Source: Minisyncoccota bacterium
GTDB lineage: Bacteria > Patescibacteriota > Minisyncoccia > Phycocordibacterales > SBAW01
NCBI GenBank assembly: GCA_035510635.1
Contig: DATKGU010000001.1
Span: 649 to 64,648 of the forward strand
Reading direction: 5' to 3'
DNA length: 64,000 nt
The notes beneath the pieces were generated by a model. It saw only the letters and a program-made list of their open reading frames with translations, was not told the DNA's origin and did no database searches. Both the position numbers and the translations under genes were made by a program. Shown here one piece after another: positions 27,815-46,078 of the stretch; within the stretch, counting starts at the first letter, position 1; each line of letters starts with the position of its first letter.

Positions 27815-30433
27815 ATGATATATCATAGTGCGTCCAGTACTCCAACCACTCCTGCTGTTGGACCTACGAGGTCGAACACAACATCCAATTCCTCCTCCAG
27901 CAAACTCACTACCGCCTATGTCACTCATGGTGAGCTTACTGCCGCTATTCAACAAGCTATTGGTACACTCCCTGCAATCACAGGAGGTTCAGGACAATCA
28001 ACCTCTCCCTCAATTCAAGCACAGTTGGATGCCCTACAAAGGGAAGTAGCCCTTACCAACAGCATCAACAACCTTGCGCCCACTAACAATGTGGCACTTA
28101 CTATTTCTAACCCTACTATTACGGGAGGTACTATCTCCAACGCCGCACTCCAAGGAAATACCCTCTCTGCCGGAGCTGCTACCTTAGGAGCTACTACTAT
28201 TGCCGGTGGTCTTACCGCCACCGGTGGTGTCACTTTTGACAGTGCGACGACGACTAACTTCTTCACAACCACTGCAAACTCGACAAATCTTTTCACAGTC
28301 AATGCTACTACAACAAGTACCTATTCGTCACTTTACAATACTTCCAGCCTGGGTAAGGGTTACGAAATTGATGGCGGCACAGTCTTGCAAGCGAGTTCAA
28401 CGCTGTACAATTTGTCTATAGGTCACCATCTTATCGGCCTTGCTCCTTATACTTTAGTTAATAGTAATACTTTCGTTGGCGAAGGGGCGTTTGATGTCAA
28501 TAACGGAAGTACCGACAATACTGCCGTGGGCGCCAATGCACTCAATTCGCTTTCAGGTCCAAGTCCAACTAGCGGCGGAAGCAATTCGGCTTTTGGTCAG
28601 GCATCGCTCTACAAATTGACTAGTGGAGGTAATAATTCCGCTTTCGGTTCGCTTGGCATGTTTAATGCCACAAGTAGCAGCAATAACGTTGCTGTTGGTT
28701 ATGGTGCTCTTTACGGCAACGCGGGAACCGGCGGCACGTATGACGACAATACCGCTATTGGTGTGAATTCTCTTTGGTCGGAGACGACTGGTAGCTACAA
28801 CACCGCTTTGGGATACTCCAGTCTTTATGCAAACACTACAGGAGGTAGTAATGTTGCTGTCGGCGCACCGGCCCTTCAGGCAAACACGACGGGTAGCCAC
28901 AATATTGCGGTAGGGATTGCTCTCCCATCAAATATCAGTGGTTCACAAAATGTCGCTATTGGTGATAATGCATTAAATAATTCTACTGCATCTTCGTACA
29001 ACACCGCCGTCGGCGTTAGTTCTTTGTATTCTGACACAAGCGGTCAGTATAATGTGGGCCAAGGCGTCCAATCTCTAAACTCTAACACGACGGGCAGCAA
29101 CAGTGCAGCCATTGGGTATCAGGCGCTCTATAACAACACTAATAGTGACCAAAATACCGCCATAGGCGCTGGAGCTGGGTACGGCAACGGTTCTTATACG
29201 AGTGGATTGAATGTTCTCATTGGGGTTAATGCAAATCGAAATGCAGCGAACAGTGCGAATTACAACACGTTTGTGGGCTACGCAGCTGGATATAACAATC
29301 AAGCTCAAGGTAATACAGGACTCGGGTATCAGGCTGGCTACGATATCACCACAGGTTATTACAATCTTGTTCTCGGTTATTATCCGACCACTGGAGTCGG
29401 GCTTACAAGTGGAAACAACAATATACTTTTTGGCTATGATGTAAGACCTGTCTCGCGGGGTGGTAGCAATCAGCTCAATATAGGCAATCTCATCTTTGGA
29501 ACTGGATTGGGTTCAGGTACGACTCTCTCAACAGGTAGCCTAGGCATCGGCACCACCTCACCCGCTACACTCCTCGAACTTGGTGGTAGTACTGCTAATC
29601 TCACTATGGATGGTTACAAGAATTGCACAGGCTTTACCTCCAACGCCAACGGCCTCGTGGCTTGCACTGCGTCAGACCAACGGTTGAAACAGGGCATTAC
29701 GCCGCTTGATGCCTCAAGCACTCTATCGGCAATTAACGCACTCACCCCCGTGTCCTTCTTCTGGAGGCCAGAGACAGACAGAGGCACACAACAGCAGTAC
29801 GGTCTCATCGCTCAAGCAGTACAACAAATCTTCCCTAATCTTGTTTCTACGAGCTCACCAACAGACTTAACTCCTGATGGCACGCTTACCGTTAACTACG
29901 ACGGCCTCATTGCGCCGATAATTATTGCAATCCAAACACTCAGCAGGGAAGTTGCTTCCCTTACAGCAACCGTGGCGGGGTTTGCAGAAAGTTTTACGAC
30001 GAAAGTTATTAATTCTCAAAAAGATAATACCCAGCAGCTTTGTATCTCCGACGGTCCCAGTGACTCCAATCCTCTGTGTATTACTAAATCACAACTCGCT
30101 AATATTCTCTCTGGTCAATCATCCCCATCGGTCCAAGTGAGCCAATCAACCACCCCCGTCGTCTCCACCTCAACCCCTCCCACCATCAATATCCAAGGTC
30201 AAAACCCTGCCACCATCCACATCGGCGACACCTACACCGACTTGGGTGCCATAGTCACCGACAACCAAGGCCACAACTTGGGTTACACCACCTACCTTAA
30301 CGGTGTGTTAGTTTCTACACTCAGCATTGATACAAGCACCACAACAACCGACACAATAGACTACGTAGCCACTGACACCTGGGGGAATACGAGTACGTCA
30401 ACCCGAACGGTAGTCATAGAAACAGCAAACTAA
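27815..30433 (+). CDS. tail-fibre-like surface protein paralog (872 aa from ATG 27815): repeat region, peptidase S74 intramolecular chaperone domain, C-terminal Ig-like domain
   Basis: NTAVG/NVAVG-type repeats. SDQRLKQGITPLD...YGLIAQAVQQIFPNLV S74 signature. C-terminal IQGQNPATIHIGDTYTDLGAIVTDNQGH...VATDTWGNT near-identical to 7268-10591. Frame is open upstream to 27584 with no in-frame ATG. Confidence 0.8.
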   Translation: MIYHSASSTPTTPAVGPTRSNTTSNSSSSKLTTAYVTHGELTAAIQQAIGTLPAITGGSGQSTSPSIQAQLDALQREVALTNSINNLAPTNNVALTISNPTITGGTISNAALQGNTLSAGAATLGATTIAGGLTATGGVTFDSATTTNFFTTTANSTNLFTVNATTTSTYSSLYNTSSLGKGYEIDGGTVLQASSTLYNLSIGHHLIGLAPYTLVNSNTFVGEGAFDVNNGSTDNTAVGANALNSLSGPSPTSGGSNSAFGQASLYKLTSGGNNSAFGSLGMFNATSSSNNVAVGYGALYGNAGTGGTYDDNTAIGVNSLWSETTGSYNTALGYSSLYANTTGGSNVAVGAPALQANTTGSHNIAVGIALPSNISGSQNVAIGDNALNNSTASSYNTAVGVSSLYSDTSGQYNVGQGVQSLNSNTTGSNSAAIGYQALYNNTNSDQNTAIGAGAGYGNGSYTSGLNVLIGVNANRNAANSANYNTFVGYAAGYNNQAQGNTGLGYQAGYDITTGYYNLVLGYYPTTGVGLTSGNNNILFGYDVRPVSRGGSNQLNIGNLIFGTGLGSGTTLSTGSLGIGTTSPATLLELGGSTANLTMDGYKNCTGFTSNANGLVACTASDQRLKQGITPLDASSTLSAINALTPVSFFWRPETDRGTQQQYGLIAQAVQQIFPNLVSTSSPTDLTPDGTLTVNYDGLIAPIIIAIQTLSREVASLTATVAGFAESFTTKVINSQKDNTQQLCISDGPSDSNPLCITKSQLANILSGQSSPSVQVSQSTTPVVSTSTPPTINIQGQNPATIHIGDTYTDLGAIVTDNQGHNLGYTTYLNGVLVSTLSIDTSTTTTDTIDYVATDTWGNTSTSTRTVVIETAN

Positions 30434-30437
30434 AATA

Positions 30438-30505
30438 TCAAGGACGGTCCTTGAAAAATCCGTGGTGTTGCCACGGATTTTCAAAAACACGGTTTGTGGT
30501 ATACT
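30438..30505 (+). promoter_or_regulatory. two palindromes (tcaaggac-g-gtccttga; aaaaatccgtgg-N5-ccacggattttt) overlapping a TATACT -10 upstream of hicB
   Basis: Perfect inverted repeats directly after the stop of the surface-protein gene. -10 tatact at 30500-30505 with ATG at 30512, so likely leaderless and autoregulated. Confidence 0.5.
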
Positions 30506-30511
30506 ACCCGC

Positions 30512-30721
30512 ATGTATACAGCTGTGTACGAAAAGGTCCCGCAAGGGTATATTGCATGGCTCGAGGAAATCCCGGGAGTGTTAACGCAGGGCAAAACCAA
30601 GCGCCAAACAGAAGAAAACCTTAAAGACGCGTTTAAAGAGTTTATGCTCGCTCAACGCACGCTCACACACAAAGAAACACGCGGTAAAGACATCACTCGG
30701 GAGCGTTTTGTTTGCGCATAG
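30512..30721 (+). CDS. hicB: HicB-family antitoxin (UPF0150 fold)
   Basis: MYTAVYEKVPQGYIAWLEEIPGVLTQGKTKRQTEENLKDAFKEFML matches the HicB N-terminal domain pattern. Overlaps hicA. Confidence 0.7.
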   Translation: MYTAVYEKVPQGYIAWLEEIPGVLTQGKTKRQTEENLKDAFKEFMLAQRTLTHKETRGKDITRERFVCA

Positions 30722-30726
30722 CAACG

Positions 30727-30921
30727 ATGAAACGCCGTGACTTTGAAAGTCATTTGCAGTTGCACAAATGCGATTTAGTGCGCGAAGGCGCTAAACACTC
30801 GGTGTATAAAAACTTTCAAACAGGGAGCAGTTCAACGGTGCCCCGGCATGCGGAGATTTGGCCGGACATGGTCAAAAAAATCTGTAAACAGCTTGGCATT
30901 CCAGTGCCCAAGGGCAAGTAA
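30727..30921 (+). CDS. hicA: HicA-family mRNA interferase toxin
   Basis: GAKHSVY...TVPRH...ICKQLGI matches HicA/YcfA motifs. Confidence 0.7.
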   Translation: MKRRDFESHLQLHKCDLVREGAKHSVYKNFQTGSSSTVPRHAEIWPDMVKKICKQLGIPVPKGK

Positions 30922-30931
30922 GGCATCTCAA

Positions 30932-30962
30932 TAAAAAACTCCGGCATGTGCCGGAGTTTTTT
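30932..30962. terminator. bidirectional terminator aaaaaactccggcatgtgccggagttttttt
   Basis: Stem ctccggca/tgccggag flanked by A and T runs. Serves hicBA (+) and rplT (-). Confidence 0.7.
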
Positions 30963-30975
30963 TGTTTGAAATTTG

Positions 30976-31329
30976 TTAGGAAACTTTGGAGACTACTCTT
31001 GCAAAGGTCTCGGGGGACTTGGCTGCGAGCTCGGAGAGCATTTTGCGGTTTATAAGGACGCCTTGTTTCTTGAGTGCGCCTATAAACTTGCTGTAGGAGA
31101 GTATACCTTCGCCGACATTGTCGAGACCGGCGTTGATGCGGACGTTCCACAAACGGCGAAAGTCGTTTTTCTTGTCGCGGCGGTGCGCAAAGGCGCTTTT
31201 GCCGGCATGAAAGACCGCCTCTTTTGCCGCGCGCTCCTTTTTGCTGCGGGCAAAGCGATAGCCTTTGACCGTTTTAAGGACATTGCGGCGGCGCTTGAGC
31301 GAATTGACTCCTCCTTTTACTCTGGACAT
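30976..31329 (-). CDS. rplT: 50S ribosomal protein L20
   Basis: L20 family sequence. Confidence 0.93.
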   Translation of the reverse strand: MSRVKGGVNSLKRRRNVLKTVKGYRFARSKKERAAKEAVFHAGKSAFAHRRDKKNDFRRLWNVRINAGLDNVGEGILSYSKFIGALKKQGVLINRKMLSELAAKSPETFARVVSKVS

Positions 31330-31529
31330 AGATTAATTCTTTGACTTTGCAGCCGTTTAAAGCGCTGGGATACTTTGGGGGTAACCTTGTAGTTTTGCGT
31401 GCGGTTGGTGCCCATTTGCGTGCGGCGGCTCTCCTTAGCATTAAAATGGTCTTGACCTGGGCGGCGCGCGGTAAGCTTGCCGTTTTTGCTGATTTTGAGG
31501 CGCTTGGTAAATGATTTGTTGGTTTTCAT
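31317..31529 (-). CDS. rpmI: 50S ribosomal protein L35
   Basis: Basic 70 aa protein between infC and rplT, L35-like. Confidence 0.85.
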   Translation of the reverse strand: MKTNKSFTKRLKISKNGKLTARRPGQDHFNAKESRRTQMGTNRTQNYKVTPKVSQRFKRLQSQRINLCPE

Positions 31530-31566
31530 GGTGTTCTTTTTTATTGTCTTCCTCGCAGGCTCGGAA

Positions 31567-32088
31567 TTACGCTGCTTTCTTTCCTACTTTTTCTATCACC
31601 GTGCTCAAGCCCTTGGGGCTCTTGCTGATAGGCTCGCCCTGCTTAAACTCGGCCGGGATAAGCTTGAGAAACCGCTCGAGCCGCTCCTTTAAAAAGGCAA
31701 ATTCCATGTACTTGTAGCGCCCCCACAAAAAGAGGTCTACTTTAACACGGTGCCCCTCACCGAGCCACTCTGCGGCCCGCTTGGCCTTAAGGGCCATATC
31801 GTTGTCGCCGGTGCCTATTTTTACCTGGACGGACTTCGTTTCGGTGGTGTGCGATTTAGCCTTTATTTCACGGCGTTTCTTCTCCTGCTCGTAGGAGAAT
31901 TTACCATATTCCATGATTTTTGCAACCGGCGGGACGGCGTTGGGCGATATCTCGATAAGGTCGAGGCCGAGCTCTTCGGCGCGCGCCAAAGCATCAGAAA
32001 GGCTTATGACGCCTATATTTTCCCCTTCGGGGCCGATAACGCGCACCTCGGCGGCGCGTATCTGATGATTGATGCGAGTAGTATCCAA
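31567..32088 (-). CDS. infC: translation initiation factor IF-3
   Basis: IF3 N- and C-domain sequence (INHQIRAAEVRVIG...). Confidence 0.92.
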   Translation of the reverse strand: MDTTRINHQIRAAEVRVIGPEGENIGVISLSDALARAEELGLDLIEISPNAVPPVAKIMEYGKFSYEQEKKRREIKAKSHTTETKSVQVKIGTGDNDMALKAKRAAEWLGEGHRVKVDLFLWGRYKYMEFAFLKERLERFLKLIPAEFKQGEPISKSPKGLSTVIEKVGKKAA

Positions 32089-32141
32089 AGCGTTTGTGGG
32101 CTTTAGTATAACACCCTTATCTGTTTTTGGTAAGAGTGTAT

Positions 32142-33284
32142 CTAGTTGTGGTGCAAACCTCTAAGGAGCGCACTGCAGTCGGCTATAAGGTTTAAGATGG
32201 TGGGTTTGTTGGGCAGCGTCTTGTCTTTTGCGATAGTCGTGAGCACCGACACGATGTCGATGAGACAGCTATTGGTTGATTTGACCACAAAAAAGGTAAC
32301 GGTCGAAGTTGCGGTGTTGCCGTAGCTGTCGGTGGCAACAACCGATGCTTTGCTTACGGTGGGCGCCGAGCTAAGCGGAAGCGGCGCAGCCGGATTTATC
32401 ACTGTACCATTAAGCCAATAGACCACATGTGCAATAGGCGACTGGTCGGTAACGGTTGCGGTCAAAAACACCGTGTTGGTTTTAGCATACAAGCTATATT
32501 GGAGCGGAGAGGTGATAGTGACACTCGGCGGTGTTGTATCAACTACGGGCGCCGGCGTGATAGTGAGCGTGCCTGGTACAAAGGTAAATGCGTAGTTGTT
32601 TGCGGAGACCAACGTGCCTGCCGTGCAGGTGATAGGGTAGGTGCCCAGCGTGCTCGCGCTGGTGGCGGTGGTCGTACATTGCGCCGAGCCGGTTACGTCA
32701 TTGGAGCTTGCGGTGTCGGGTGCCACAAAACCGCTCAGCGTTGAGGTAAATGTTGGGAGAGATGCGCCTTGCACCATGCTTTGATTGTCAGCGGTCACGG
32801 TAAGAGAAAAACGCGGCCACTGCCAGGGAATCGTGGTGAGGTCGGGCGAGGTAGTGCCTTGGCCTGTTGTAAGGTAGGTATCAGTTACGAGTGCATCACT
32901 TAACGTTGACCCTGAGTATGCGGCAGCAAAATATGTATCGCCGGGATTTGGTGTGCCAAAAGAGTTGGGGTAAGAGATAAAAGAAAAGTACGGACTCCCT
33001 TGGACAAACCCAACATTAACCTCTGTTGCGTTGCCGATGGTGCCTTTGTAAATGCCAATCACTTTGTAGCTGCCGGTTTGAGGGATGGTGTACGTGCAGG
33101 TGCCGCCGTTTGTTGGCGCGTACGAGCCGCCTACTACAAAAGGCGCGGTGTACGGATCGCACGTGACACTAAACGGGAGAGGAGTTGTCGAAGGATTTGG
33201 AGCGCTTGCAACACTTGCCCATGCCACCGGACTTCCGATAAAGAGTAGTGCAACCAGAGCAACCACATATCCTGTGTATTTCAT
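32142..33284 (-). CDS. secreted protein with C-terminal Ig-like (DUF5011-like) domain
   Basis: Signal peptide MKYTGYVVALVALLFIGSPVAWA. C-terminal VATDSYGNTATSTVTF resembles the VATDTWGNTATSTRTV segment of the tail-fibre-like proteins. Confidence 0.6.
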   Translation of the reverse strand: MKYTGYVVALVALLFIGSPVAWASVASAPNPSTTPLPFSVTCDPYTAPFVVGGSYAPTNGGTCTYTIPQTGSYKVIGIYKGTIGNATEVNVGFVQGSPYFSFISYPNSFGTPNPGDTYFAAAYSGSTLSDALVTDTYLTTGQGTTSPDLTTIPWQWPRFSLTVTADNQSMVQGASLPTFTSTLSGFVAPDTASSNDVTGSAQCTTTATSASTLGTYPITCTAGTLVSANNYAFTFVPGTLTITPAPVVDTTPPSVTITSPLQYSLYAKTNTVFLTATVTDQSPIAHVVYWLNGTVINPAAPLPLSSAPTVSKASVVATDSYGNTATSTVTFFVVKSTNSCLIDIVSVLTTIAKDKTLPNKPTILNLIADCSALLRGLHHN

Positions 33285-33356
33285 ATGATTTTAAGGTACC
33301 ACAAGTGACAATACTATGCGGGCAACTTTTGCACAGGTTCATCCGTAAGATATAGT

Positions 33357-34262
33357 ATGCAGCGATATCTCAGATATCTGGCAGCCGGTTTGACGCTCTC
33401 TGCGAGCTTGCTGGTGTGTCAGCCGGCCTATGCGGCAACGATACCCGGCCAGCAGTTAAACGTGCCGCAAGGCACCGCTTCGCTCAATTGGGCTGGATAC
33501 GTCGCTCAAAACTCAGGCACCTATACGAGCGTAACCGGTACGTGGACTATTCCTGCAGTGCCCGCAAACCCTTCGGGCGCGGCCGACGCCACATGGGTTG
33601 GTATCGGCGGGGTCCAAACGCACGATTTGATACAAGCAGGCACGCAAGCGCTGATAAACAGCAACGGCACCGTTACCTACACTGCGTGGGTTGAAACACT
33701 CCCCGGATACTCTCAAACGGTTTCTCTAGCTGTCGCAAGCGGCGACTCTATCACGGCAACGCTCAGCCAAGTGTCGCAGGATGTTTGGAGTGTTGTTATA
33801 AAAGACAACACCAGCGGGCAGAGTTATAGTGCGACGCTCAATTATGATTCGTCGCTTTCATCGGCCGAGTGGGTGGAGGAGATGGTCAGCAATCAAAACG
33901 GCGCGTTTATATCGCTCGACTCGTTTGGTATGGTCGGATTTACCGGCGCGAGCGCCACGGTTAATGGCACGAGTGAAAATCTTGCGGAGCTTAATGCGCA
34001 GCCGCTCCCGATGGTTAACAGTGCGGGCTCCATATTGGCAAGTGTCTCTGCGCTCGGCAGCGATGGCGCAAGTTTTAGCGTTACGCGCACAAGTGCCTCG
34101 CCAAGCGCGAGCGTGCCGCGCGGCACTGTAGGCCGCTGGCATGTCATACAAACGGCCACCTCAACACCGGGCGCCGACCCCGGCTTTACCTTTGTGCGCC
34201 GCTTGCGTGCGCAGACAGACGGCCGTCATATTGGGTTTAGCTTTGTGCTGATGCGATTTTAA
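33357..34262 (+). CDS. secreted peptidase G1 (eqolisin/scytalidoglutamic peptidase) family protein
   Basis: Signal peptide. NWAGY, WVGIGG, LIQAGTQ (catalytic Gln region), AEWVEEM (catalytic Glu region) conserved blocks. Confidence 0.7.
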   Translation: MQRYLRYLAAGLTLSASLLVCQPAYAATIPGQQLNVPQGTASLNWAGYVAQNSGTYTSVTGTWTIPAVPANPSGAADATWVGIGGVQTHDLIQAGTQALINSNGTVTYTAWVETLPGYSQTVSLAVASGDSITATLSQVSQDVWSVVIKDNTSGQSYSATLNYDSSLSSAEWVEEMVSNQNGAFISLDSFGMVGFTGASATVNGTSENLAELNAQPLPMVNSAGSILASVSALGSDGASFSVTRTSASPSASVPRGTVGRWHVIQTATSTPGADPGFTFVRRLRAQTDGRHIGFSFVLMRF

Positions 34263-34489
34263 AACAAAGAGGGAAGGCCAAACGACAGCAGTGTGGTGAT
34301 AAACATAAAAAATAAAAAAGTGAGTGCGCCGGTTTGAAAGGCCTGTATAAGCGGCTTTCTCTTTTCGGCATAATGGCGCGACATTTCCATGTAGTTGATA
34401 AGAAAAGCCACCAATCCTGCGAGGGTAGAAAAGACCGATCCCCACACCAAGAGGAAGGAAAAGAGCATACCTCTAAGTATTGCACACAT
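34259..34489 (-). CDS. possible small two-TM membrane protein (76 aa)
   Basis: Two hydrophobic helices. Sits in an otherwise gene-free gap. Weak. Confidence 0.3.
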   Translation of the reverse strand: MCAILRGMLFSFLLVWGSVFSTLAGLVAFLINYMEMSRHYAEKRKPLIQAFQTGALTFLFFMFITTLLSFGLPSLF

Positions 34490-34561
34490 TACATGATGTT
34501 TTCATGTGCTCCTGATTAAGTTCGCGCTATACTAGTGTAGTAAAACGCATGTAATTATTAG

Positions 34562-34930
34562 TTGTTTATAAAAATAATGGCAAAAGATATGGACAAAGAG
34601 CACGGCGAGGGGTGCACGTGTGGGTGCCAAAATGGGATGTGCGGATGTCATGGAGGCATGTGCGGAGGCTTGTGGGGTCACTATCACTGGGGCCACATGA
34701 TTATCAAGCTTTTTATCGTATTGTTTATATTTTGGGCGGGCATGCAGTTTGGCGAGCTTAAAGCTGCTGTCGACAACTTTGAGGGCGGCGGCATGGGCTA
34801 CGGTCATAGTTCCTACTATCTCAATGGTGCGCAGGGCGACATGATGGGCGGTCGGACTACGTCTGCGATGCCTGCTCAGGGCGTCACCGTACAAATGATG
34901 CGCGTCGCCACCGACACTCCCCGCCAATAA
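34562..34930 (+). CDS. Cys/His/Met/Gly-rich small membrane protein, putative metal-binding
   Basis: CTCGCQNGMCGCHGGMCGG...HYHWGH followed by a TM helix and GGGMGYGH/MMGG repeats. Sits immediately upstream of the flavin module. Confidence 0.5.
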   Translation: MFIKIMAKDMDKEHGEGCTCGCQNGMCGCHGGMCGGLWGHYHWGHMIIKLFIVLFIFWAGMQFGELKAAVDNFEGGGMGYGHSSYYLNGAQGDMMGGRTTSAMPAQGVTVQMMRVATDTPRQ

Positions 34931-35033
34931 TTTCGTACTGACCTAAATCAAAAAAACACCCGATGCGGGTGTTTTTTTGTTGAATACCTGAAACGATACT
35001 AGGTCTATAGTCGTATATACTTATATCTACGGT

Positions 35034-35618
35034 ATGAAACGGTTTGCCCTTTCGGTGTTGGTGTTTGTGGCCTCTGGGGCCTATGTGGTGTACCAATACA
35101 TGGGAGGCAGCTTTGCGAGTGCCGCTATACCTGCGCCCACCGTGGTTGCTGTACAAACCACACAACCAGTTGCCACCACGCCTGCTACGACAGTCACAAC
35201 GCAGCCAAGTACCCCCACGCAAACAACAACTCCTACTTCAACACAAACGCCAACCCCAACTCAGGTACCAACACCCACTCCTACCCCTGTGGTAACACCA
35301 ACGCCGGCTCCCGTTGTTAAACCCAAGGGTCTATATACAGACGGCACCTATACCGGCAGCACCGCCGATGCCTACTACGGCACCGTGCAAGTGCAGGTCG
35401 TTATCCAAAATGGGAAAATAGTCACGGTAAACTTTTTGCAATATCCGAGCGACCGCCGGACCTCGCAATATATCAACGCACAAGCAATGCCGCAGCTTAA
35501 GAGCGAGGCAATCGCAGCGCAGAGCGCCAACGTAAGCGGCGTCTCGGGTGCATCGGACACGAGCGCGGCTTTTATCCAATCACTTGGCGATGCGCTTACG
35601 CAGGCTAAAAACGCATAA
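35034..35618 (+). CDS. membrane-anchored FMN-binding domain protein (PT-rich linker)
   Basis: YTDGTYTGSTADAYYGTVQVQVVIQNGKIVTV matches FMN_bind (NqrC/RnfG/PplA-like). Confidence 0.75.
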   Translation: MKRFALSVLVFVASGAYVVYQYMGGSFASAAIPAPTVVAVQTTQPVATTPATTVTTQPSTPTQTTTPTSTQTPTPTQVPTPTPTPVVTPTPAPVVKPKGLYTDGTYTGSTADAYYGTVQVQVVIQNGKIVTVNFLQYPSDRRTSQYINAQAMPQLKSEAIAAQSANVSGVSGASDTSAAFIQSLGDALTQAKNA

Positions 35619-35620
35619 CT

Positions 35621-36361
35621 ATGCGAGCTACGCGGATTATCATGGCTATGCCTGTGGTTGTGGAGATAGTCGGCGGCACCGAGGCCGACCTCAACACCGT
35701 GTTTGATTATTTTACAGCGGTCGACGAGCGTTTTAGCGTCTACAAACCGCACAGTGAGATTTCAAAAATTAATCGCGGCGAGCTGCATCTCAAAGATGCA
35801 AGCAAAGAGATGCAAGAAGTGTTTGTGCTTTCCGAAAAGACCCGCGAGGAAAGCGATGGGTATTTTTCTATCACCAAACCAGACGGCACCATTGACCCTT
35901 CGGGGCTGGTGAAAGGCTGGGCGATACAAAATGCCGCGCAATTAATTGAGCACATGGGGTATCACGATTACTACGTAGAAGTTGCCGGCGATATACAAAC
36001 CAAAGGCGTTGACGAAGTGGGCCAGCCGTGGAGCATTGGCATCCGCAATCCATTTAACCGCAACGAAATTGTTAAAGTGCTCTATCCAAAAGGGAAGGGC
36101 GTTGCAACCTCGGGTACCGCTATTAGAGGACAGCATATTTATAATCCGCATGACCTTGCGCAAACCTTTGACGACGTCGTGAGCCTTACGGTTGTGGGGC
36201 CAAATATTTACGAGGCCGATAGGTTTGCCACCGCGGCGTTTGCTATGGGGCGGGGAGGTGTCACGTTTATCGAGCAGCTCCCCGCGTTTGATGGGTATAG
36301 TATTGATAGCAAAGGCATTGCAACCATGACCAGCGGCTTTGAAGCACTCACCACCCTATGA
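35621..36361 (+). CDS. ApbE-family FAD:protein FMN transferase (short form)
   Basis: IDPSGLVKGWA, VATSGT ApbE blocks. Confidence 0.75.
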   Translation: MRATRIIMAMPVVVEIVGGTEADLNTVFDYFTAVDERFSVYKPHSEISKINRGELHLKDASKEMQEVFVLSEKTREESDGYFSITKPDGTIDPSGLVKGWAIQNAAQLIEHMGYHDYYVEVAGDIQTKGVDEVGQPWSIGIRNPFNRNEIVKVLYPKGKGVATSGTAIRGQHIYNPHDLAQTFDDVVSLTVVGPNIYEADRFATAAFAMGRGGVTFIEQLPAFDGYSIDSKGIATMTSGFEALTTL

Positions 36362-37869
36362 ACTTTATAGACAACTTTTTAAATCGCATCACCATGTACC
36401 GCTTGGTGCTGTATTACCTCGTGGGTTTGGTATTGGTTGCGTTTGTGTTTGGATTTTTTGGCATATTGCCCTATGACCCAACGGCTATCGCGTTTTCGAT
36501 GGTGCTTATCTTAGCCGTGTGTTGGGTCACCAACTGGGTGTTTGCGCGCGTGTTTGAAGCGGCCACCAACATTGAGTCGGTATATATTACCGCGCTCATC
36601 TTGGTGCTTATCATCAATCCGGTTATGGCCACCGATCACACCGGCGTCGGATTTCTTATTTTTGCCAGCGTGTGGGCGATGGCGTCAAAATATATTTTTG
36701 CTATCGGTAAAAAACATGTGTTTAATCCGGCTGCGTTTGCCGTGGCGTTGACCGCGCTGGTGTTAAACGAGCCGGCCACGTGGTGGGTAGGAGGCAACTT
36801 GGCGCTGCTGCCGTTTGTGGTAGTGGGCGGCCTGTTGGTGGTGCGCAAAATACAACGCTTTGACCTTGTGGCTAGCTTTGCAGTGGTGTCGCTTGCAACT
36901 ATTGTCGCGACCTCCGGCGGCAACTACACAACGCCCATTACGCAAACGCTCCTCCACTCGTCGTTTTTCTTTTTAGCGTTTGTGATGTTGACCGAGCCGC
37001 TCACCACGCCGCCCAACCGCTGGTTGCGCGTGTTGTACGGCGCGATTGTAGGATTTCTTTTTGCGCCCAACATACACATTGGCGGGTTTTATCTCACACC
37101 AGAGCTGGCGCTTCTCGTAGGCAACATCTTTGCCTACGCGGTGAGCCCCAAAGGGCGCTATATGCTCACCTTGGTTGGCATCGAGCAGATGTCCACCGAC
37201 GTATACGACTTTGTATTTAAAAGCGACCGCAGTTTTATGTTTAAACCGGGGCAATATTTGGAGTGGACGCTTGGGCATCGTTACCCCGACGACCGCGGCA
37301 ACCGGCGATACTTTACTATTGCCTCTGCGCCAAGCGAACAAAACATGCGCCTCGGTGTTAAGTTTTATACGCCGTCGAGCACCTTTAAGCGTGCGCTTGC
37401 CAACATGAAGGTGGGGGAGAAGATATCGGCCTCGCATCTCTCGGGCGGATTTGTGTTGCCAAAAGACGCTACAAAAAAGCTGGTGTTTATTGCAGGAGGC
37501 ATTGGCATCACGCCGTTTCGCAGCATGATCCAATACATGCTCGACAAAAAAGAGCGGCGCAGTGTCGTGTTGCTCTACTCCAACAAAACCGCCGCCGATG
37601 TTGCCTACAAACCTATCTTTGACCGTGCGCAAACAGAGCTTGGAATTAAAACGCTGTATGCCTTGAGCGCCGAAAAAACCCAAGTACCCGGCATGTTTAA
37701 CGGGAGTATTGATGCCGCATTAATTGCCGAGCAGATACCGGATTATAAAGAACGCATGTTTTATCTCTCCGGCCCGCACGGCATGGTAGACGCCTTTAAA
37801 CACACACTTGTCGGCATGGGAGTTTCGCGATTTAAAATTAAAAGTGACTTCTTTCCCGGCCTTGTATAA
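36358..37869 (+). CDS. RnfD/NqrB-like membrane domain fused to FNR-like FAD/NAD(P)-binding oxidoreductase domain
   Basis: HVFNPAAFAVAL and MLTEPLTTP (RnfD/NqrB hallmarks). C-terminal RYFTIAS (RxYS FAD motif) and GGIGITPF NAD(P)-binding motif. Confidence 0.75.
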   Translation: MNFIDNFLNRITMYRLVLYYLVGLVLVAFVFGFFGILPYDPTAIAFSMVLILAVCWVTNWVFARVFEAATNIESVYITALILVLIINPVMATDHTGVGFLIFASVWAMASKYIFAIGKKHVFNPAAFAVALTALVLNEPATWWVGGNLALLPFVVVGGLLVVRKIQRFDLVASFAVVSLATIVATSGGNYTTPITQTLLHSSFFFLAFVMLTEPLTTPPNRWLRVLYGAIVGFLFAPNIHIGGFYLTPELALLVGNIFAYAVSPKGRYMLTLVGIEQMSTDVYDFVFKSDRSFMFKPGQYLEWTLGHRYPDDRGNRRYFTIASAPSEQNMRLGVKFYTPSSTFKRALANMKVGEKISASHLSGGFVLPKDATKKLVFIAGGIGITPFRSMIQYMLDKKERRSVVLLYSNKTAADVAYKPIFDRAQTELGIKTLYALSAEKTQVPGMFNGSIDAALIAEQIPDYKERMFYLSGPHGMVDAFKHTLVGMGVSRFKIKSDFFPGLV

Positions 37870-37972
37870 CCTATGAGCGAGCACAAACTATTTATCGGTA
37901 ATCGCGCCAGCGCCAAAAGTGCGCCGCACGTATACTGATGATGACAGGGGAGATGATAATTAATCACACACT

Positions 37973-38551
37973 ATGAGCCTCTACGAAAAAATAGCCACAG
38001 TCATAATCGTTATATTAGTGTTGATAATGGTTGTCTTTTCATACCACGAGTACAAAGAGCCGGCGCATGAGAGCGCCTCGGGCCCTAACTCGGGCTTTGA
38101 CCAAAGCATTGGTGCCGATTTTATCATTGGCCCGTACAACAGGGTGGTGAGCTCGCAGGTGTCGGGCGGCCTTGAGGATAATTGCACCGAGCTCCAATCT
38201 GTTTTTGTCGGCACACTCCACGATATTAAAGAGCGTCTTGAGCATTTAAAAACCTACACCGGTGTGGAGGATCCGTTTGAGGTTAATGAGGCAACGCTGC
38301 AGCTGTTGTGCAACAAAAATGTAACCCTAACGCTCAGCGACGCGAGCGACAACACGCTCGTGTTGCAAAAAATTCCGTTTGTACGAATGGTCCCGCAAAA
38401 TGGCGAGCAAGATGATATAGGCACCGAGGTGCACATCAATGCCACGCTGGTGCCCAAAGGGGGAGTAGAGCCGAGCCAACCCACAACCTATGGTGATGAA
38501 TTAATCCCCGACCGCTTCCTCGACGTAGCAACCTCGAGCCAAGTGCAGTAA
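37973..38551 (+). CDS. hypothetical N-terminally anchored protein (192 aa)
   Basis: Single N-terminal TM helix, no motifs recognised. Confidence 0.5.
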   Translation: MSLYEKIATVIIVILVLIMVVFSYHEYKEPAHESASGPNSGFDQSIGADFIIGPYNRVVSSQVSGGLEDNCTELQSVFVGTLHDIKERLEHLKTYTGVEDPFEVNEATLQLLCNKNVTLTLSDASDNTLVLQKIPFVRMVPQNGEQDDIGTEVHINATLVPKGGVEPSQPTTYGDELIPDRFLDVATSSQVQ

Positions 38552-38622
38552 TTCTCTGCACCTCATCTCAAAAACAGGCGGGGGCTTGTAGTGTTAAGGG
38601 CTTACCACTAATCCTTTTTTAC

Positions 38623-38847
38623 ATGGCAACCATCATTAATAATCCTCCGAGCGAAACTACGATTGCGCCCGACAGCTCGTCGGGCTGGGCGGTCGCGGTC
38701 ATTATACTTTTAGTAGTCATTGCAGTAGGCGCGTTTGCATGGATACGCTATCACCGCGCAGGTGTAACACCGGCGCCAAGCACCACGGTGCAGGTCAATT
38801 TGCCCAGCGTTGGTTCCAACTCCGGCACCTCCCCCGCAACTCAATAA
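38623..38847 (+). CDS. hypothetical small membrane protein (74 aa)
   Basis: One TM helix. Confidence 0.4.
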   Translation: MATIINNPPSETTIAPDSSSGWAVAVIILLVVIAVGAFAWIRYHRAGVTPAPSTTVQVNLPSVGSNSGTSPATQ

Positions 38848-39283
38848 AGTATTTGCGTTCAACATTACATTACCGAACGCTATCGTAAAAATATAGCAAC
38901 CTAAAATATCAGTAACTGTCAATATTAAGGTGAAGGTATAATACAAAGGTCTGGCACAGAAGTTAGTCACTGGCAGATATACCTACTGGAATTGGCTGGT
39001 AGGGAAGTACGTTAATAATGGTCAATAGGCACTTCAAGAAGTCGTCCGTCAGTGCAAGCGTTTCTGCACTCAGCTGAGCGACTTTGCTTAAGGCAAGCAC
39101 GACCGCCGCAAGGCTTGTAGTGTGAGTCAAGGTAATGTGCATGTTGATTATATAAACTAAGTAAAGTTCACCATTCCTGGCTATCTTTGGGTAGTCTTAT
39201 GACCGTAATAGCCCCGCGCTCCGCCGATGCATTTGCATTAATAAGGACACCAGGAGTCCGAGGAGCCGTGTGGGTATGAACTT
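38848..39283 (+). ncRNA. candidate RT-associated structured noncoding RNA (436-nt AT-rich region with extended -10 ggtataat and multiple hairpins)
   Basis: No ORF of at least 60 aa. TATAAT at about 38935. Hairpins agtgca...tgcact and ttgcttaaggcaagca. Located directly upstream of the RT gene. Confidence 0.4.
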
Positions 39284-40651
39284 ATGACTGAAGAACAAAG
39301 CATCTTACAGCAAACGTGGCTTCAAAAAGAAAGGTTAAATTTGGAACCAAGAAAAGACTATTCGCCAAAGCGGCAATATTTACATTTTGATAAACGCATA
39401 ACCTCGATAGACTCGGAGGTTCTAAAGAAAGTTTGGAATCCTAAAGCGGTAGCATCACATTCTTTTTATCCCTTCCTACGCGCAGTTAAAAGTGCCTATC
39501 TTTATAAACGTATTCCAGGTACCCGTAAACGGGGGTTGTTTAAAAAGAATCGACCTATAGATTATTCAGCGCACATGGATGCGTTAATTTTGTCTTGGTA
39601 CGCTTCCATCTTGTCAGAACTATACGAGCAAAAAGTTCGTGAGTTTGATGTTTCAAAAAATGCAATTGCGTATCGAAAATTGGATGGCAAGAATAACATT
39701 GACTTCGCAAAGGAAGTTTTTGACTTTGTTGGATCACATCCAGATTTTGTAGCCATTGCATTTGACGTAGAAAAATTTTTTGAAAATATAGACCATAAAC
39801 TTCTTAAAACATTATGGAAAGAACTATTAAAAGTTGGCGAACTCCCAGAAGATCATTACGCCGTATTTAAGGAAATAAGTTCCTTTCGATACGTTGATAT
39901 AAAGCAGATGCATAAACTGTTCGACTTTACTTTCAAGGATCAAGGCCGATTAGATAGGATATGTTCAACAAGAGATTTTAGGAATAAGGTTTGCGATGGC
40001 GGTTTTTTGAAGAAAAACCCTCGTGTTAATCAAAAAACTGGTAACTCTGTAGGTATTCCTCAAGGTTCACCGATAAGCTGTGTGATTTCTAACCTATACA
40101 TGCTTCCTTTTGATGCAGTAGTTGCTAAAAGAATACAAGACTTGGGCGGTATGTACAGAAGATATTCGGACGACATAATCATTGTGGTCCCAAGAGAAAA
40201 AGCTGACGAATGTAATTCTTTTGTTCAGAAAGAAGTCGGGAATATTGGCTTAAATATTAATGATTCTAAAACAGAAAAAGTTAAATTTTTGAATGAGGGT
40301 GGGCACATAGTTGCTCGTGACTGGAGTGAAAACGCAATTGCAAAATTACAATATCTAGGAGTTGAGTTTGATGGTGAGAATACTCGATTGCGTCATGCAG
40401 GCCTCGGGCGTTTCCAAAGACGTCGAGTGAGAAGTGTCCGACGTTTATATAATTGGTCAAAGCATAATAAAAAACCAATACCTATAGAGCCTCTAATAAA
40501 GAAATATACCCGTAAAGGAGGAAACAATTACCTATCTTATGCAGATACATCCAAAACTAAGCTCAACTCTAAGTTGATTGGCAAACAGACTTTTGAACCC
40601 CGGGTGGTTAAACAACTGAAAAAACTTCTTCCAAACAAAAAACACCCATGA
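39284..40651 (+). CDS. stand-alone reverse transcriptase (non-intron; retron/Abi/DRT-like)
   Basis: RT blocks FAIAFDVEKFFENIDH (1/2), GIPQGSPISCVISNLYM (4), RYSDDIIIV (YxDD, 5), LNINDSKTEKV (6), LGVEFDG (7). 150-aa N-terminal and basic 100-aa C-terminal extensions. Low GC. Confidence 0.85.
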   Translation: MTEEQSILQQTWLQKERLNLEPRKDYSPKRQYLHFDKRITSIDSEVLKKVWNPKAVASHSFYPFLRAVKSAYLYKRIPGTRKRGLFKKNRPIDYSAHMDALILSWYASILSELYEQKVREFDVSKNAIAYRKLDGKNNIDFAKEVFDFVGSHPDFVAIAFDVEKFFENIDHKLLKTLWKELLKVGELPEDHYAVFKEISSFRYVDIKQMHKLFDFTFKDQGRLDRICSTRDFRNKVCDGGFLKKNPRVNQKTGNSVGIPQGSPISCVISNLYMLPFDAVVAKRIQDLGGMYRRYSDDIIIVVPREKADECNSFVQKEVGNIGLNINDSKTEKVKFLNEGGHIVARDWSENAIAKLQYLGVEFDGENTRLRHAGLGRFQRRRVRSVRRLYNWSKHNKKPIPIEPLIKKYTRKGGNNYLSYADTSKTKLNSKLIGKQTFEPRVVKQLKKLLPNKKHP

Positions 40652-40670
40652 CTGGTGCTTTTTGTTCTGT

Positions 40671-41035
40671 TGGTGGAGATGGCGCGAGTTGAACGCGCGT
40701 GCAATGAAGGTTTGCAGAGAGCTTCTACAAGGTGTAGGACATTTTAGTTTTCTTAGGCTCGGATGTTTAAAATGAGCAAAATCATTTTGAGCCGCAGATT
40801 GCAAGTTTCAACGTGTGGTCGAATCAACCCCACTCGCTATATCCTGTTTTATAACATCCTACATCCGCGATCAGGTCACGCGGAGAAGATGCGAGTTGCT
40901 TAGGCTAATGCGAAAGCGAACTCGTTCGCCGAGAAATACGGCGATGCAACTGACTTTGCAGTTATGGTTACCGGATTTTTAAGAAGTTCCGGACTTCTAC
41001 CTCGCACTCAATGCATGAGCCTCATTGTCTAGGCC
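40671..41035 (-). ncRNA. ssrA: tmRNA (ssrA)
   Basis: tRNA-like ends: 5' GGGGAUG pairs with 3' CAUCUCC giving a G3:U70 Ala identity pair, T-arm cgcgc-GUUCAAC-gcgcg, ACCA-3'. Internal tag ORF ...GCG AAC GAG UUC GCU UUC GCA UUA GCC UAA = ANEFAFALA-stop. Adjacent to smpB. Confidence 0.85.
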
Positions 41036-41049
41036 CGGCATCCCCATAG

Positions 41050-41511
41050 TTATTGATTTTTCAACGTGCGTTGTATGTCGCGTTTCGTGTCCCGCTCTTT
41101 TAAGACAGAGCGCTTGTCGTACTTCTTACGACCTTTGGCTATTGCCACGCGCATCTTTACCTTCGAGCCTTTATTATACACCGTCAAAGGCACTATTGTC
41201 AATCCTTTCTGGCCTTCGGCGTCGGCAAGTTTTTGCAACTCTTTTTTGGTGAGGAGCAGGCGGCGCGTGCGGCCGCTCTCGTACTCCTTTGGCGTGTTGG
41301 CCGGCTGGTAGGGAGGGATGTCCATACCCACAATATAGGCCTCGAGGCCACCGCGCCGCCCGCTCGGGCGCACTATTATATGTGCGCCCTCGAGCTTGCC
41401 GTGTTTGGCGCGGAGCGACTTTACCTCGTGGCCGAGCAACTCTAAGCCCGCCTCAAACTCCTCGAGGGTCTCGTAGTCAAAATGCGCCTTTTTATGCTCA
41501 AGCAAATTCAC
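41050..41511 (-). CDS. smpB: SsrA-binding protein SmpB
   Basis: SmpB family sequence immediately 5' of ssrA. Confidence 0.9.
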   Translation of the reverse strand: MNLLEHKKAHFDYETLEEFEAGLELLGHEVKSLRAKHGKLEGAHIIVRPSGRRGGLEAYIVGMDIPPYQPANTPKEYESGRTRRLLLTKKELQKLADAEGQKGLTIVPLTVYNKGSKVKMRVAIAKGRKKYDKRSVLKERDTKRDIQRTLKNQ

Positions 41512-41542
41512 GTACTGACTATATCACTTTTTTATGTTCCTT

Positions 41543-41570
41543 TTGTCAAAACGCATAAAAATGTTATTAT
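41543..41570 (+). promoter_or_regulatory. promoter TTGTCA-16-TATTAT giving a leaderless ftsH transcript
   Basis: -10 ends 9 nt before the ATG at 41580. Confidence 0.45.
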
Positions 41571-41579
41571 GCGGTATTC

Positions 41580-43538
<1,959 letters not shown>

Positions 43539-45999: not shown

Positions 46000-46071
46000 G
46001 GGCGCGTAGCTCAGCGGTAGAGCAGCCGTCTTATACACGGCCGGTCCCTGGTTCGATCCCAGGCGCGCCCA
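46000..46071 (+). tRNA. tRNA-Ile, gene-encoded anticodon UAU (reads AUA)
   Basis: Cloverleaf: acceptor GGGCGCG/CGCGCCC, D-arm GCUCAGCGGUAGAGC, anticodon stem GCCGU/ACGGC with loop CUUAUAC, T-arm CCUGG-UUCGAUC-CCAGG, discriminator A. Overall resembles tRNA-Ile2 but has TAT rather than CAT. Confidence 0.8.
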
Positions 46072-46078
46072 CTAAAGT

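Follow-up and report, generated by a model that had tools for sequence, protein, structure and literature searches.

The 64-kb window analysed here, a stretch of contig DATKGU010000001.1 from a metagenome-assembled genome (MAG) of a Minisyncoccota bacterium, carries a solitary reverse transcriptase (RT) gene beside the transfer-messenger RNA (tmRNA) gene ssrA. The RT gene (39284..40651, + strand) encodes 455 aa, with the motif QGSPIS at residues 260-265 and a YSDD active site encoded at 40163-40174, both read directly in the sequence. It is preceded by about 435 nt (38848-39283) without a conserved gene, and its stop codon lies 19 nt from the 3' CCA of ssrA (40671..41045, - strand), beyond which smpB (41050..41511, - strand) is also intact. 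The tmRNA gene, predicted by ARAGORN and matched at full length by Rfam RF00023 (91 bits), is an intact neighbour and not a part of the system. GC content is 0.35-0.44 across roughly 38800-40800, flanked by DNA of 0.50-0.60. An earlier interpretation made without database searches (the sequence-only reading) had described a single 455-aa RT with QGSPIS and YSDD in a low-GC patch, lacking a maturase/X domain and ending close to the tmRNA 3' CCA next to an intact smpB-ssrA pair; the list of open reading frames (ORFs), direct reading, the GC profile and Pfam agree with it on all of these points. From the RT family, the conservation and covariation of the upstream region, a split promoter, and a repeat unit that is divisible by three and stop-free in one frame, we put a probability of about 0.85 on the locus being a type 2 defence-associated reverse transcriptase system (DRT2, or UG2), consisting of one RT gene and a noncoding RNA (ncRNA) transcribed just upstream on the same strand.

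By its profile scores, the RT is a recognisable member of the Drt2 family. It passes the NCBIfam Drt2 equivalog NF041746 (403.5 bits, cut-off 390) and scores 433 bits (E 4e-130) against the Drt2 profile of PADLOC, where the next family, Drt3a, reaches 77 bits and Drt9 66 bits. Residues 28-440 align with solved Drt2 structures (for example PDB 9c0i, E 5e-65), and the same protein is held in GenBank as HUD02444.1, from a Candidatus Paceibacterota MAG, under the label "antiviral reverse transcriptase Drt2". The idea, raised in the sequence-only reading, that the RT might belong to an unclassified lineage is therefore abandoned. Among full-length homologues, even the nearest reach no more than 50% identity; those with names come mostly from Patescibacteria MAGs, and identity to enterobacterial Drt2 proteins, that of Klebsiella included, is about 37%. 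All invariant residues of a 33-sequence RT alignment, among them YSDD, are by definition present in the window RT. RVT_1 is its one Pfam domain; Pfam found neither a maturase/X nor an endonuclease domain. The architecture is that of a single gene without a dedicated effector, flanked by ssrA and, on the opposite side, by small membrane ORFs of host-like character, which are not common to related DRT2 loci. One of the loci gathered for comparison, which we number L, is a contig of another run (L089, from SRR8676594) whose positions 1-1583 are 100% identical to window 38631-40213 over 1583 nt. This contig thus represents the same strain and locus assembled independently, which confirms the assembly and adds no comparative information. 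Publications linking DRT2 with Patescibacteria were searched for, and none was found.

The region upstream of the RT is conserved among relatives. We fetched the contigs of the closest RT homologues (44-50% identity) and aligned their upstream regions of 400-650 nt with that of the window using MAFFT; six regions, including the window, align from the promoter to the RT start. The strong -10 box that the sequence-only reading had noticed upstream is TATAAT at 38937..38942 (+ strand). It aligns with TAAAAT/TAGAAT of the relatives, whose -35 boxes are TTGACT/TTTACT at 17-bp spacing, and it would place the transcription start near 38949. The predicted DRT2 ncRNA, whose ends we infer, would be about 335 nt long (~38949..39283, + strand) and comprise a 5' handle, a template and a 3' scaffold, leaving the first ~100 nt of the 436-nt stretch as promoter and spacer outside the ncRNA proper. 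Conserved blocks of the upstream region include the 5' hairpin, GTTRATAATnGTCAA (39011-39025), ATTGTA/ATTATA (39147-39152), AGCCCC and CCAGGAGTTCGATGG. Rfam, searched at E <= 1 across 38000-41600, returned the tmRNA only, so that the ncRNA falls under no curated family. Just upstream of the ncRNA promoter, 38895-38920 is 81% identical over 26 nt to 30424-30449, where an 872-aa gene ends; BLAST stretches this match to 40 nt at 80% identity (E 0.023), and it is probably due to chance.

Covariation indicates that this RNA would be structured. RNAalifold found compensatory changes in 13 of 36 pairs. In the 5' handle hairpin (38982..39003, + strand; CCTACTGG, AATTGG loop, CTGGTAGG), which also forms in the single-sequence fold of the window, the paired columns 41-48/56-62 carry compensatory changes, for example UA to CG in three of the six sequences. 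The 3' scaffold (39164..39283, + strand), described by our covariance model R1, contains a CCTGG/CCAGG helix (39176-39180 with 39250-39254) with two compensatory pairs, a short hairpin (39226-39239), which was left out of the formal pair counts because MAFFT misaligns it, and a long helix (39212-39222 with 39262-39274), all on the + strand. In the model-fitted alignment the long helix is 89.5% paired, with changes on both sides in 6/10 pairs and a score reached by 0/500 shuffles; that alignment favours structure, and the plain MAFFT alignment supports the helix less strongly. The register of the scaffold helix as drawn by hand was ambiguous, a +1 slide also scoring well, and the model-fitted alignment was cleaner. 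Outside its six training sequences, the scaffold model gave weak matches directly upstream of the RT in L005, L002 and L099, in the expected place and on the correct strand, and it did not detect the proteobacterial DRT2 ncRNAs. We take this as support for a conserved structured ncRNA directly upstream of the RT on the same strand, with its transcription predicted. The sequence-only reading had called the region ORF-free and structured. The covarying helices bear out its structure, whereas freedom from ORFs does not hold strictly, as mechanical minus-strand ORFs of 59 and 86 aa in the ORF list overlap 38848-39283.

The gene-synthesis mechanism of DRT2 has been worked out for the Klebsiella system, KpnDRT2 (Tang et al. 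2024, PMC11100668; Wilkinson et al. 2024, PMC12039810). There, the RT copies a template of ~120 nt in the upstream ncRNA that is flanked by two motifs, ACA-1 and ACA-2. The end of the complementary DNA (cDNA) jumps from ACA-1 to ACA-2, yielding tandem repeats in which a -35 and a -10 box come to stand 17 bp apart across the junction, and the antisense transcript carries neo, a stop-less ORF with a unit divisible by three, which makes a toxic "never-ending" gene (PMC11100668; PMC12039810).

A corresponding arrangement can be predicted in the window. The best-scoring pair in an unbiased scan of the window consists of the antisense boxes TTGACC (-35; 39020..39025, - strand), near the 3' end of the cDNA unit, and TATAAT (-10; 39147..39152, - strand), with a unit of 150 nt. 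In the genome these boxes stand the wrong way round, and they come to lie 17 bp apart only across a head-to-tail junction. The unit length was computed from this 17-bp box spacing alone; the reading frame played no part. The spacing, together with a GT(T) repeat, sets the bounds of a putative 150-nt template (39011..39160, + strand) that would be reverse-transcribed from 39160 to 39011. Its first jump repeat, GTTAA (39011..39015, + strand), is the candidate ACA-1 analogue and lies inside the clade motif GTTRATAATnGTCAA; the second, GTAAA (39161..39165, + strand), immediately 3' of the template, would be the ACA-2 analogue. At an offset of 150 the two agree in 4/5 positions, the third base being mismatched. 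The predicted head-to-tail cDNA junction reads ...CCATTATTAAC|TTAGTTTATATAATC..., or, in another rendering, ...TTGACCATTATTAAC|TTAGTTTATATAATCAACATG..., and in the ncRNA fold the promoter boxes pair with each other, closing the template. Read antisense, the predicted neo repeat unit (39011..39160, - strand) comprises 50 stop-free codons, LVYIINMHITLTHTTSLAAVVLALSKVAQLSAETLALTDDFLKCLLTIIN, and reads through into the next copy without a change of frame; in a 3x concatemer, the three frames contain 0 (frame 0), 24 and 3 stops. The Neo unit is 58% hydrophobic with a grand average of hydropathy of +1.1. Its sole in-frame ATG (39140..39142, - strand) follows the -10 box at a distance of 4 nt and lacks a Shine-Dalgarno (SD) sequence.

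The same features recur in the clade. With the boxes set at 17-bp spacing, five close relatives of the window have units of 147, 147, 159, 150 and 150 nt and four more distant clade loci have units of 153, 135, 153 and 150 nt, so that unit length is a multiple of three in 10/10 clade loci. GT(T) recurs exactly one unit downstream in all ten, the second repeats of the relatives being GTT, ATGTT, GTT, TGT, ATCGTT, GTT, TGTT, GT and TGTT, with that of L002 sharing GT only. The antisense -10 box is TACAAT/TATAAT (sense ATTGTA/ATTATA), and the -35 box TTGACN is kept in the six closest loci and is weaker in the distant L002 (TTGGCG) and L100 (TTTACA). The concatenated antisense unit is stop-free in the same frame in 10/10 clade loci, against a per-locus chance of 0.025-0.08 (2.5-8% of shuffled units are stop-free in that frame). 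As reported for published Neo proteins, the Neo units are 51-58% hydrophobic. They are poorly conserved among relatives, except for a C-terminal (L)T-x-IN, LTIIN in the six closest loci, whose codons come from the -35 box and the GTT repeat, a pattern also described in the two mechanism papers. The sole in-frame ATG of Neo in clade relatives, L002, L005, L100 and L101 among them, lies 1-7 nt after the -10 box or overlaps it, and throughout this DRT2 clade a transcript initiated at one junction can probably not make use of the ATG in its own repeat. Among 80 GTDB DRT2 loci, GTTRATAATnGTCAA was absent save for a degenerate copy in L005, and the motif therefore cannot anchor distant loci.

Controls outside the clade point in the same direction. 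Applied to a Klebsiella locus (L055), the same scan recovered the published architecture (PMC12039810): the boxes TATAAT/TTGACA, a unit of 117 nt with TGT (ACA) as its repeat, and a single stop-free frame. A unique best split promoter was obtained for 69 DRT2 loci; unit length is a multiple of three in 61 of them, and of these 61 units 60 are stop-free. In an earlier scan, which took in 86 loci, the antisense strand had a unique best split promoter at 45, with a unit divisible by three at 40 of these, and the sense strand had a unique hit at 5, none of which (0/5) was divisible by three. ACA stands at the junction in 33 canonical loci, and 8 more score as CAA one position over.

From these elements we propose the following steps, modelled on the Klebsiella system. 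The RT would bind the 5' handle and the 3' scaffold of the ncRNA and copy the 150-nt template, starting at 39160 and ending at 39011. The 3' end of the cDNA, a copy of GTTAA (39011-39015), would re-anneal to the near-repeat GTAAA (39161-39165), and copying would restart to give head-to-tail cDNA repeats of 150 nt. Upon second-strand synthesis, which is phage-triggered in the Klebsiella system, each junction would set TTGACC exactly 17 bp upstream of TATAAT. The concatemer would then be transcribed antisense to the ncRNA, and the resulting RNA would carry a stop-less ORF of 50-aa hydrophobic repeats, the Neo protein, which may arrest growth and abort infection. For cDNA synthesis, phage triggering and Neo toxicity at the window locus, we reason by analogy with KpnDRT2.

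Several observations weigh against this interpretation, and they bear on whether the locus could be a decaying or inactive DRT2 remnant, in which the RT and ncRNA are still recognisable and a functional concatemer or Neo is no longer made. Repeat 2 of the window is imperfect (GTAAA against GTTAA) where relatives have a perfect GTT, and the ncRNA promoter combines a good -10 box with a poor -35 box. The published ACA-1/ACA-2 motifs are absent, as is the published ribosome binding site (RBS) with an ATG 13 nt past the -10 box; the window ATG sits so near the -10 box that a transcript from the usual start distance would miss the ATG of its own repeat, and Neo translation would begin leaderless or at the next repeat. 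SD-like motifs are few in this host, at 5/26 long ORFs by a crude count. The 77-codon antisense stop-free stretch of the window is, taken alone, not significant, as 354/2000 shuffles reach that length. The single-sequence fold is no more stable than that of shuffles (z = -1.1), a point that also qualifies the structured region of the sequence-only reading; our case that the upstream region is structured draws on covariation among relatives, not on folding energy. The mismatched second repeat (GTA for GTT), the weak -35 box and the missing RBS are what a remnant would be expected to display. Yet the RT ORF is full length with the alignment-invariant residues, YSDD included, in place; the template retains its stop-free frame, a length divisible by three and a near-consensus split promoter; the two terminal nucleotides of the cDNA could still pair with repeat 2; and every element is conserved clade-wide. 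An SD-less ATG at or next to the -10 box is common to the whole clade and is thus a clade trait and not a sign of decay. The repeat mismatch and the weak -35 box leave some room for reduced activity, and we consider outright decay unlikely.

Two other accounts of the locus fare worse. The 59-aa minus-strand ORF (38963-39142) has an ATG, a TATAAT 4 nt upstream and hydrophobic content, and might be read as an ordinary small gene, for a toxin or a membrane peptide, that is expressed from the genome while the RT acts on something else. There is, though, no genomic -35 box at a usable distance from TATAAT, the only good one lying downstream, and at its 3' tail (VLPYQPIPVGISASD) the ORF shares sequence with the covarying 5' handle hairpin. 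The genomic ORFs of relatives end differently; conservation resides in the circularly permuted frame that spans the inferred junction, the units always being divisible by three. This makes an ordinary gene very improbable in our estimation. That the RT belongs to another class, whether a retron, a group II intron remnant, a diversity-generating retroelement (DGR) or an unclassified UG/Abi lineage, we regard as scarcely credible. The NCBIfam scores that could suggest it, 57 bits for retron St85, 69.5 for group II RT/maturase and 79 for Drt3a, are weak generic-core scores that fall short of the cut-offs of 235, 300 (TIGR04416) and 200 bits, whereas Drt2 passes its own. Retron identity was assessed on the RT profile alone and rejected on these figures, St85 being the best retron profile. 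Rfam has no group II intron or other RNA match to the ncRNA region at E <= 1, the RT lacks maturase/X and endonuclease domains, and no template/variable repeat pair for the ncRNA region exists anywhere in the 64-kb window, where its best non-self match is the 40-nt one at 80% identity (E 0.023) already mentioned. Our profile, Rfam and repeat searches thus concur with the sequence-only reading, which had taken the RT to be neither a group II intron, DGR nor retron enzyme, had seen no DGR repeats by eye, and had proposed in general terms an RT with a dedicated ncRNA of the defence-associated, gene-templating kind.

Taking DRT2 as the preferred assignment, it is possible to go one step further, if only as a speculation that we judge rather doubtful: a Patescibacteria-centred DRT2 subclade may run a mechanistically distinct form of neo synthesis, with a GT(T) microhomology 9 nt after the -35 box, units of 135-159 nt, and an ATG at or inside the -10 box. 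A start codon in this position would leave the transcript of a junction untranslatable until the next repeat. If true, the placement of the ATG would constitute a built-in gate that needs at least two repeats, with leaderless initiation as the alternative. Annotation of Neo is difficult in more divergent DRT2 clades (Tang et al. 2024, PMC11100668), and the window subclade could be one of these. As a weaker addition, the placement back to back with smpB-ssrA, with a shared terminator, might matter for the handling of a non-stop neo mRNA.

The surroundings of the locus were compared with related genomes as well. A terminator-like hairpin (40637..40663), with the RT stop TGA in its loop, is common to the RT gene and ssrA, and it is a copy of a second terminator-like hairpin (34951..34977) at the far end of a window-specific block of 5.7 kb. 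We fetched six related-genome loci through SmpB proteins at least 90% identical. All six have the gene order RecG...DHO-dehydrogenase, FtsH, SmpB, ssrA in common with the window, and for five of them (L090, L092, L093, L095 and L096) BLAST gives 82-90% DNA identity in the conserved ssrA-side flank. In these five the match to the window breaks off at the ssrA 3' end and is taken up again at 34977-34979; L091 agreed with L090, both in this result and in gene order. At this site the related loci hold 60 nt, or ~0.9 kb with a GIY-YIG gene. In the latter the GIY-YIG nuclease gene and an ORF of 137-142 aa stand downstream of ssrA (L093 8871-9281, L095 9059-9325, L096 1354-1605), so the GIY-YIG gene and the DRT2-bearing block represent different cargo at one site. 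The block (34978-40670) is absent from the five related genomes. It encodes FMN_bind (35034-35618), ApbE (35621-36361) and an RnfD-like/NAD-binding fusion (36358-37869), followed by ORFs of 192 aa and 74 aa and then DRT2. Low GC is confined to the DRT2 part, which suggests two separate events.

Because related genomes have different content at it, the site downstream of ssrA appears to be a variable hotspot. The insertion at the ssrA 3' end envisaged in the sequence-only reading thus survives in part, the site being variable and the element missing from relatives. The window-specific block, however, measures 5.7 kb and not 1.8 kb, no recombinase or integrase was found in 34978-40670, and no second copy of the ssrA 3' end was found, even at 3 mismatches. 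The only direct repeats in 30000-42000 are the duplicated terminator hairpin and short chance-like matches, and no tmRNA gene lies near any of 12 related DRT2 loci. The adjacency of RT and ssrA is most likely incidental. Several related DRT2 loci adjoin tRNA genes, large serine recombinases, an OLD-family nuclease or a type I restriction system. Among the closest homologues such neighbours are seen in L081 (4319-6130), L084 (4375-7368), L086 (1032-2582) and L083 (3875-5279), one recombinase overlapping a tRNA-Thr gene. These neighbours fit defence islands or small mobile islands, and none of them occurs in the window.

Two further features of the neighbourhood may be recorded. A tRNA-Ile gene with a TAT anticodon (46000-46072), syntenic in L090, L093 and L095, reads AUA directly, with no modified CAU anticodon. 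Beside the block, a small ORF (34562-34930, + strand) rich in Cys, Gly, His and Met (…GEGCTCGCQNGMCGCHGGMCGGLWGHYHWGH…) has no Pfam match and is possibly a gene for a metal-binding membrane peptide; the DNA that holds it aligns with related genomes (window 34979-34524, 77-81% identity).

By sequence evidence, this locus extends the logic of neo gene synthesis to a small-genome lineage of Patescibacteria, and it makes explicit template bounds and a predicted 50-aa Neo unit available for testing. Neither the ACA jump motif nor the RBS arrangement is common to all of DRT2, and annotation pipelines keyed to ACA would miss the window clade. The promoter-spacing rule yields a unit length without recourse to the reading frame, giving multiples of three in 61/69 loci and 10/10 clade loci. 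No new kind of system is revealed; the locus is a DRT2 with predicted clade-specific variations, namely GT(T) in place of ACA, longer units, and an ATG that abuts the -10 box without an RBS, and the practical value of the finding is modest.

Among known systems, retrons resemble this locus in combining an RT with a cis-encoded ncRNA, in their role in defence and in the logic of abortive infection. No retron profile passes its cut-off for the window RT, there is no effector gene, and the predicted product is a tandem coding concatemer and not branched multicopy single-stranded DNA. The locus may also be compared with other Class 2 UG/DRT systems templated by an ncRNA: DRT9, which synthesises poly-dA, DRT10, which makes telomerase-like repeats, and DRT3. 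As in these, an RT would repeatedly use an adjacent ncRNA as its template. The window RT is nevertheless far weaker on the Drt9 and Drt3a profiles than on Drt2 (66 and 77 bits compared with 433 bits), and the locus has neither a SLATT partner gene nor a second RT. Its predicted template is a coding unit of 150 nt, in contrast to the homopolymer or short repeat of DRT9 and DRT10.

The nearest counterpart is KpnDRT2, from which the window differs in several respects. Its host is a Patescibacteria (Paceibacterota) MAG, the RTs share ~37% identity, and the scaffold covariance model of the window clade misses the proteobacterial ncRNAs. The predicted unit has 150 nt (135-159 in the clade), longer than the published 111-129 nt in close Klebsiella relatives and the 99-132 nt in the ACA-type loci that we scanned. 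GT(T), at 9 nt past the -35 box, takes the place of the canonical jump repeat ACA, which is 6 nt past it; and the ATG follows the -10 box by 4 nt, with no RBS (within or next to the box in the clade), unlike the published RBS with an ATG 13 nt downstream. Other features are common to the two. In both, a single RT gene without an effector gene follows immediately downstream of an ncRNA on the same strand; the ncRNA has a hairpin handle at its 5' end, the template in the middle and a structured scaffold at its 3' end, and the pairing of the window promoter boxes in the RNA resembles the published "template hairpin". In both, the antisense -35 box falls close to the 3' end of the cDNA and the -10 box close to the 5' end, the two reaching 17-bp spacing only across the junction, and the unit, divisible by three and with one stop-free antisense frame, would encode a hydrophobic repeat protein.

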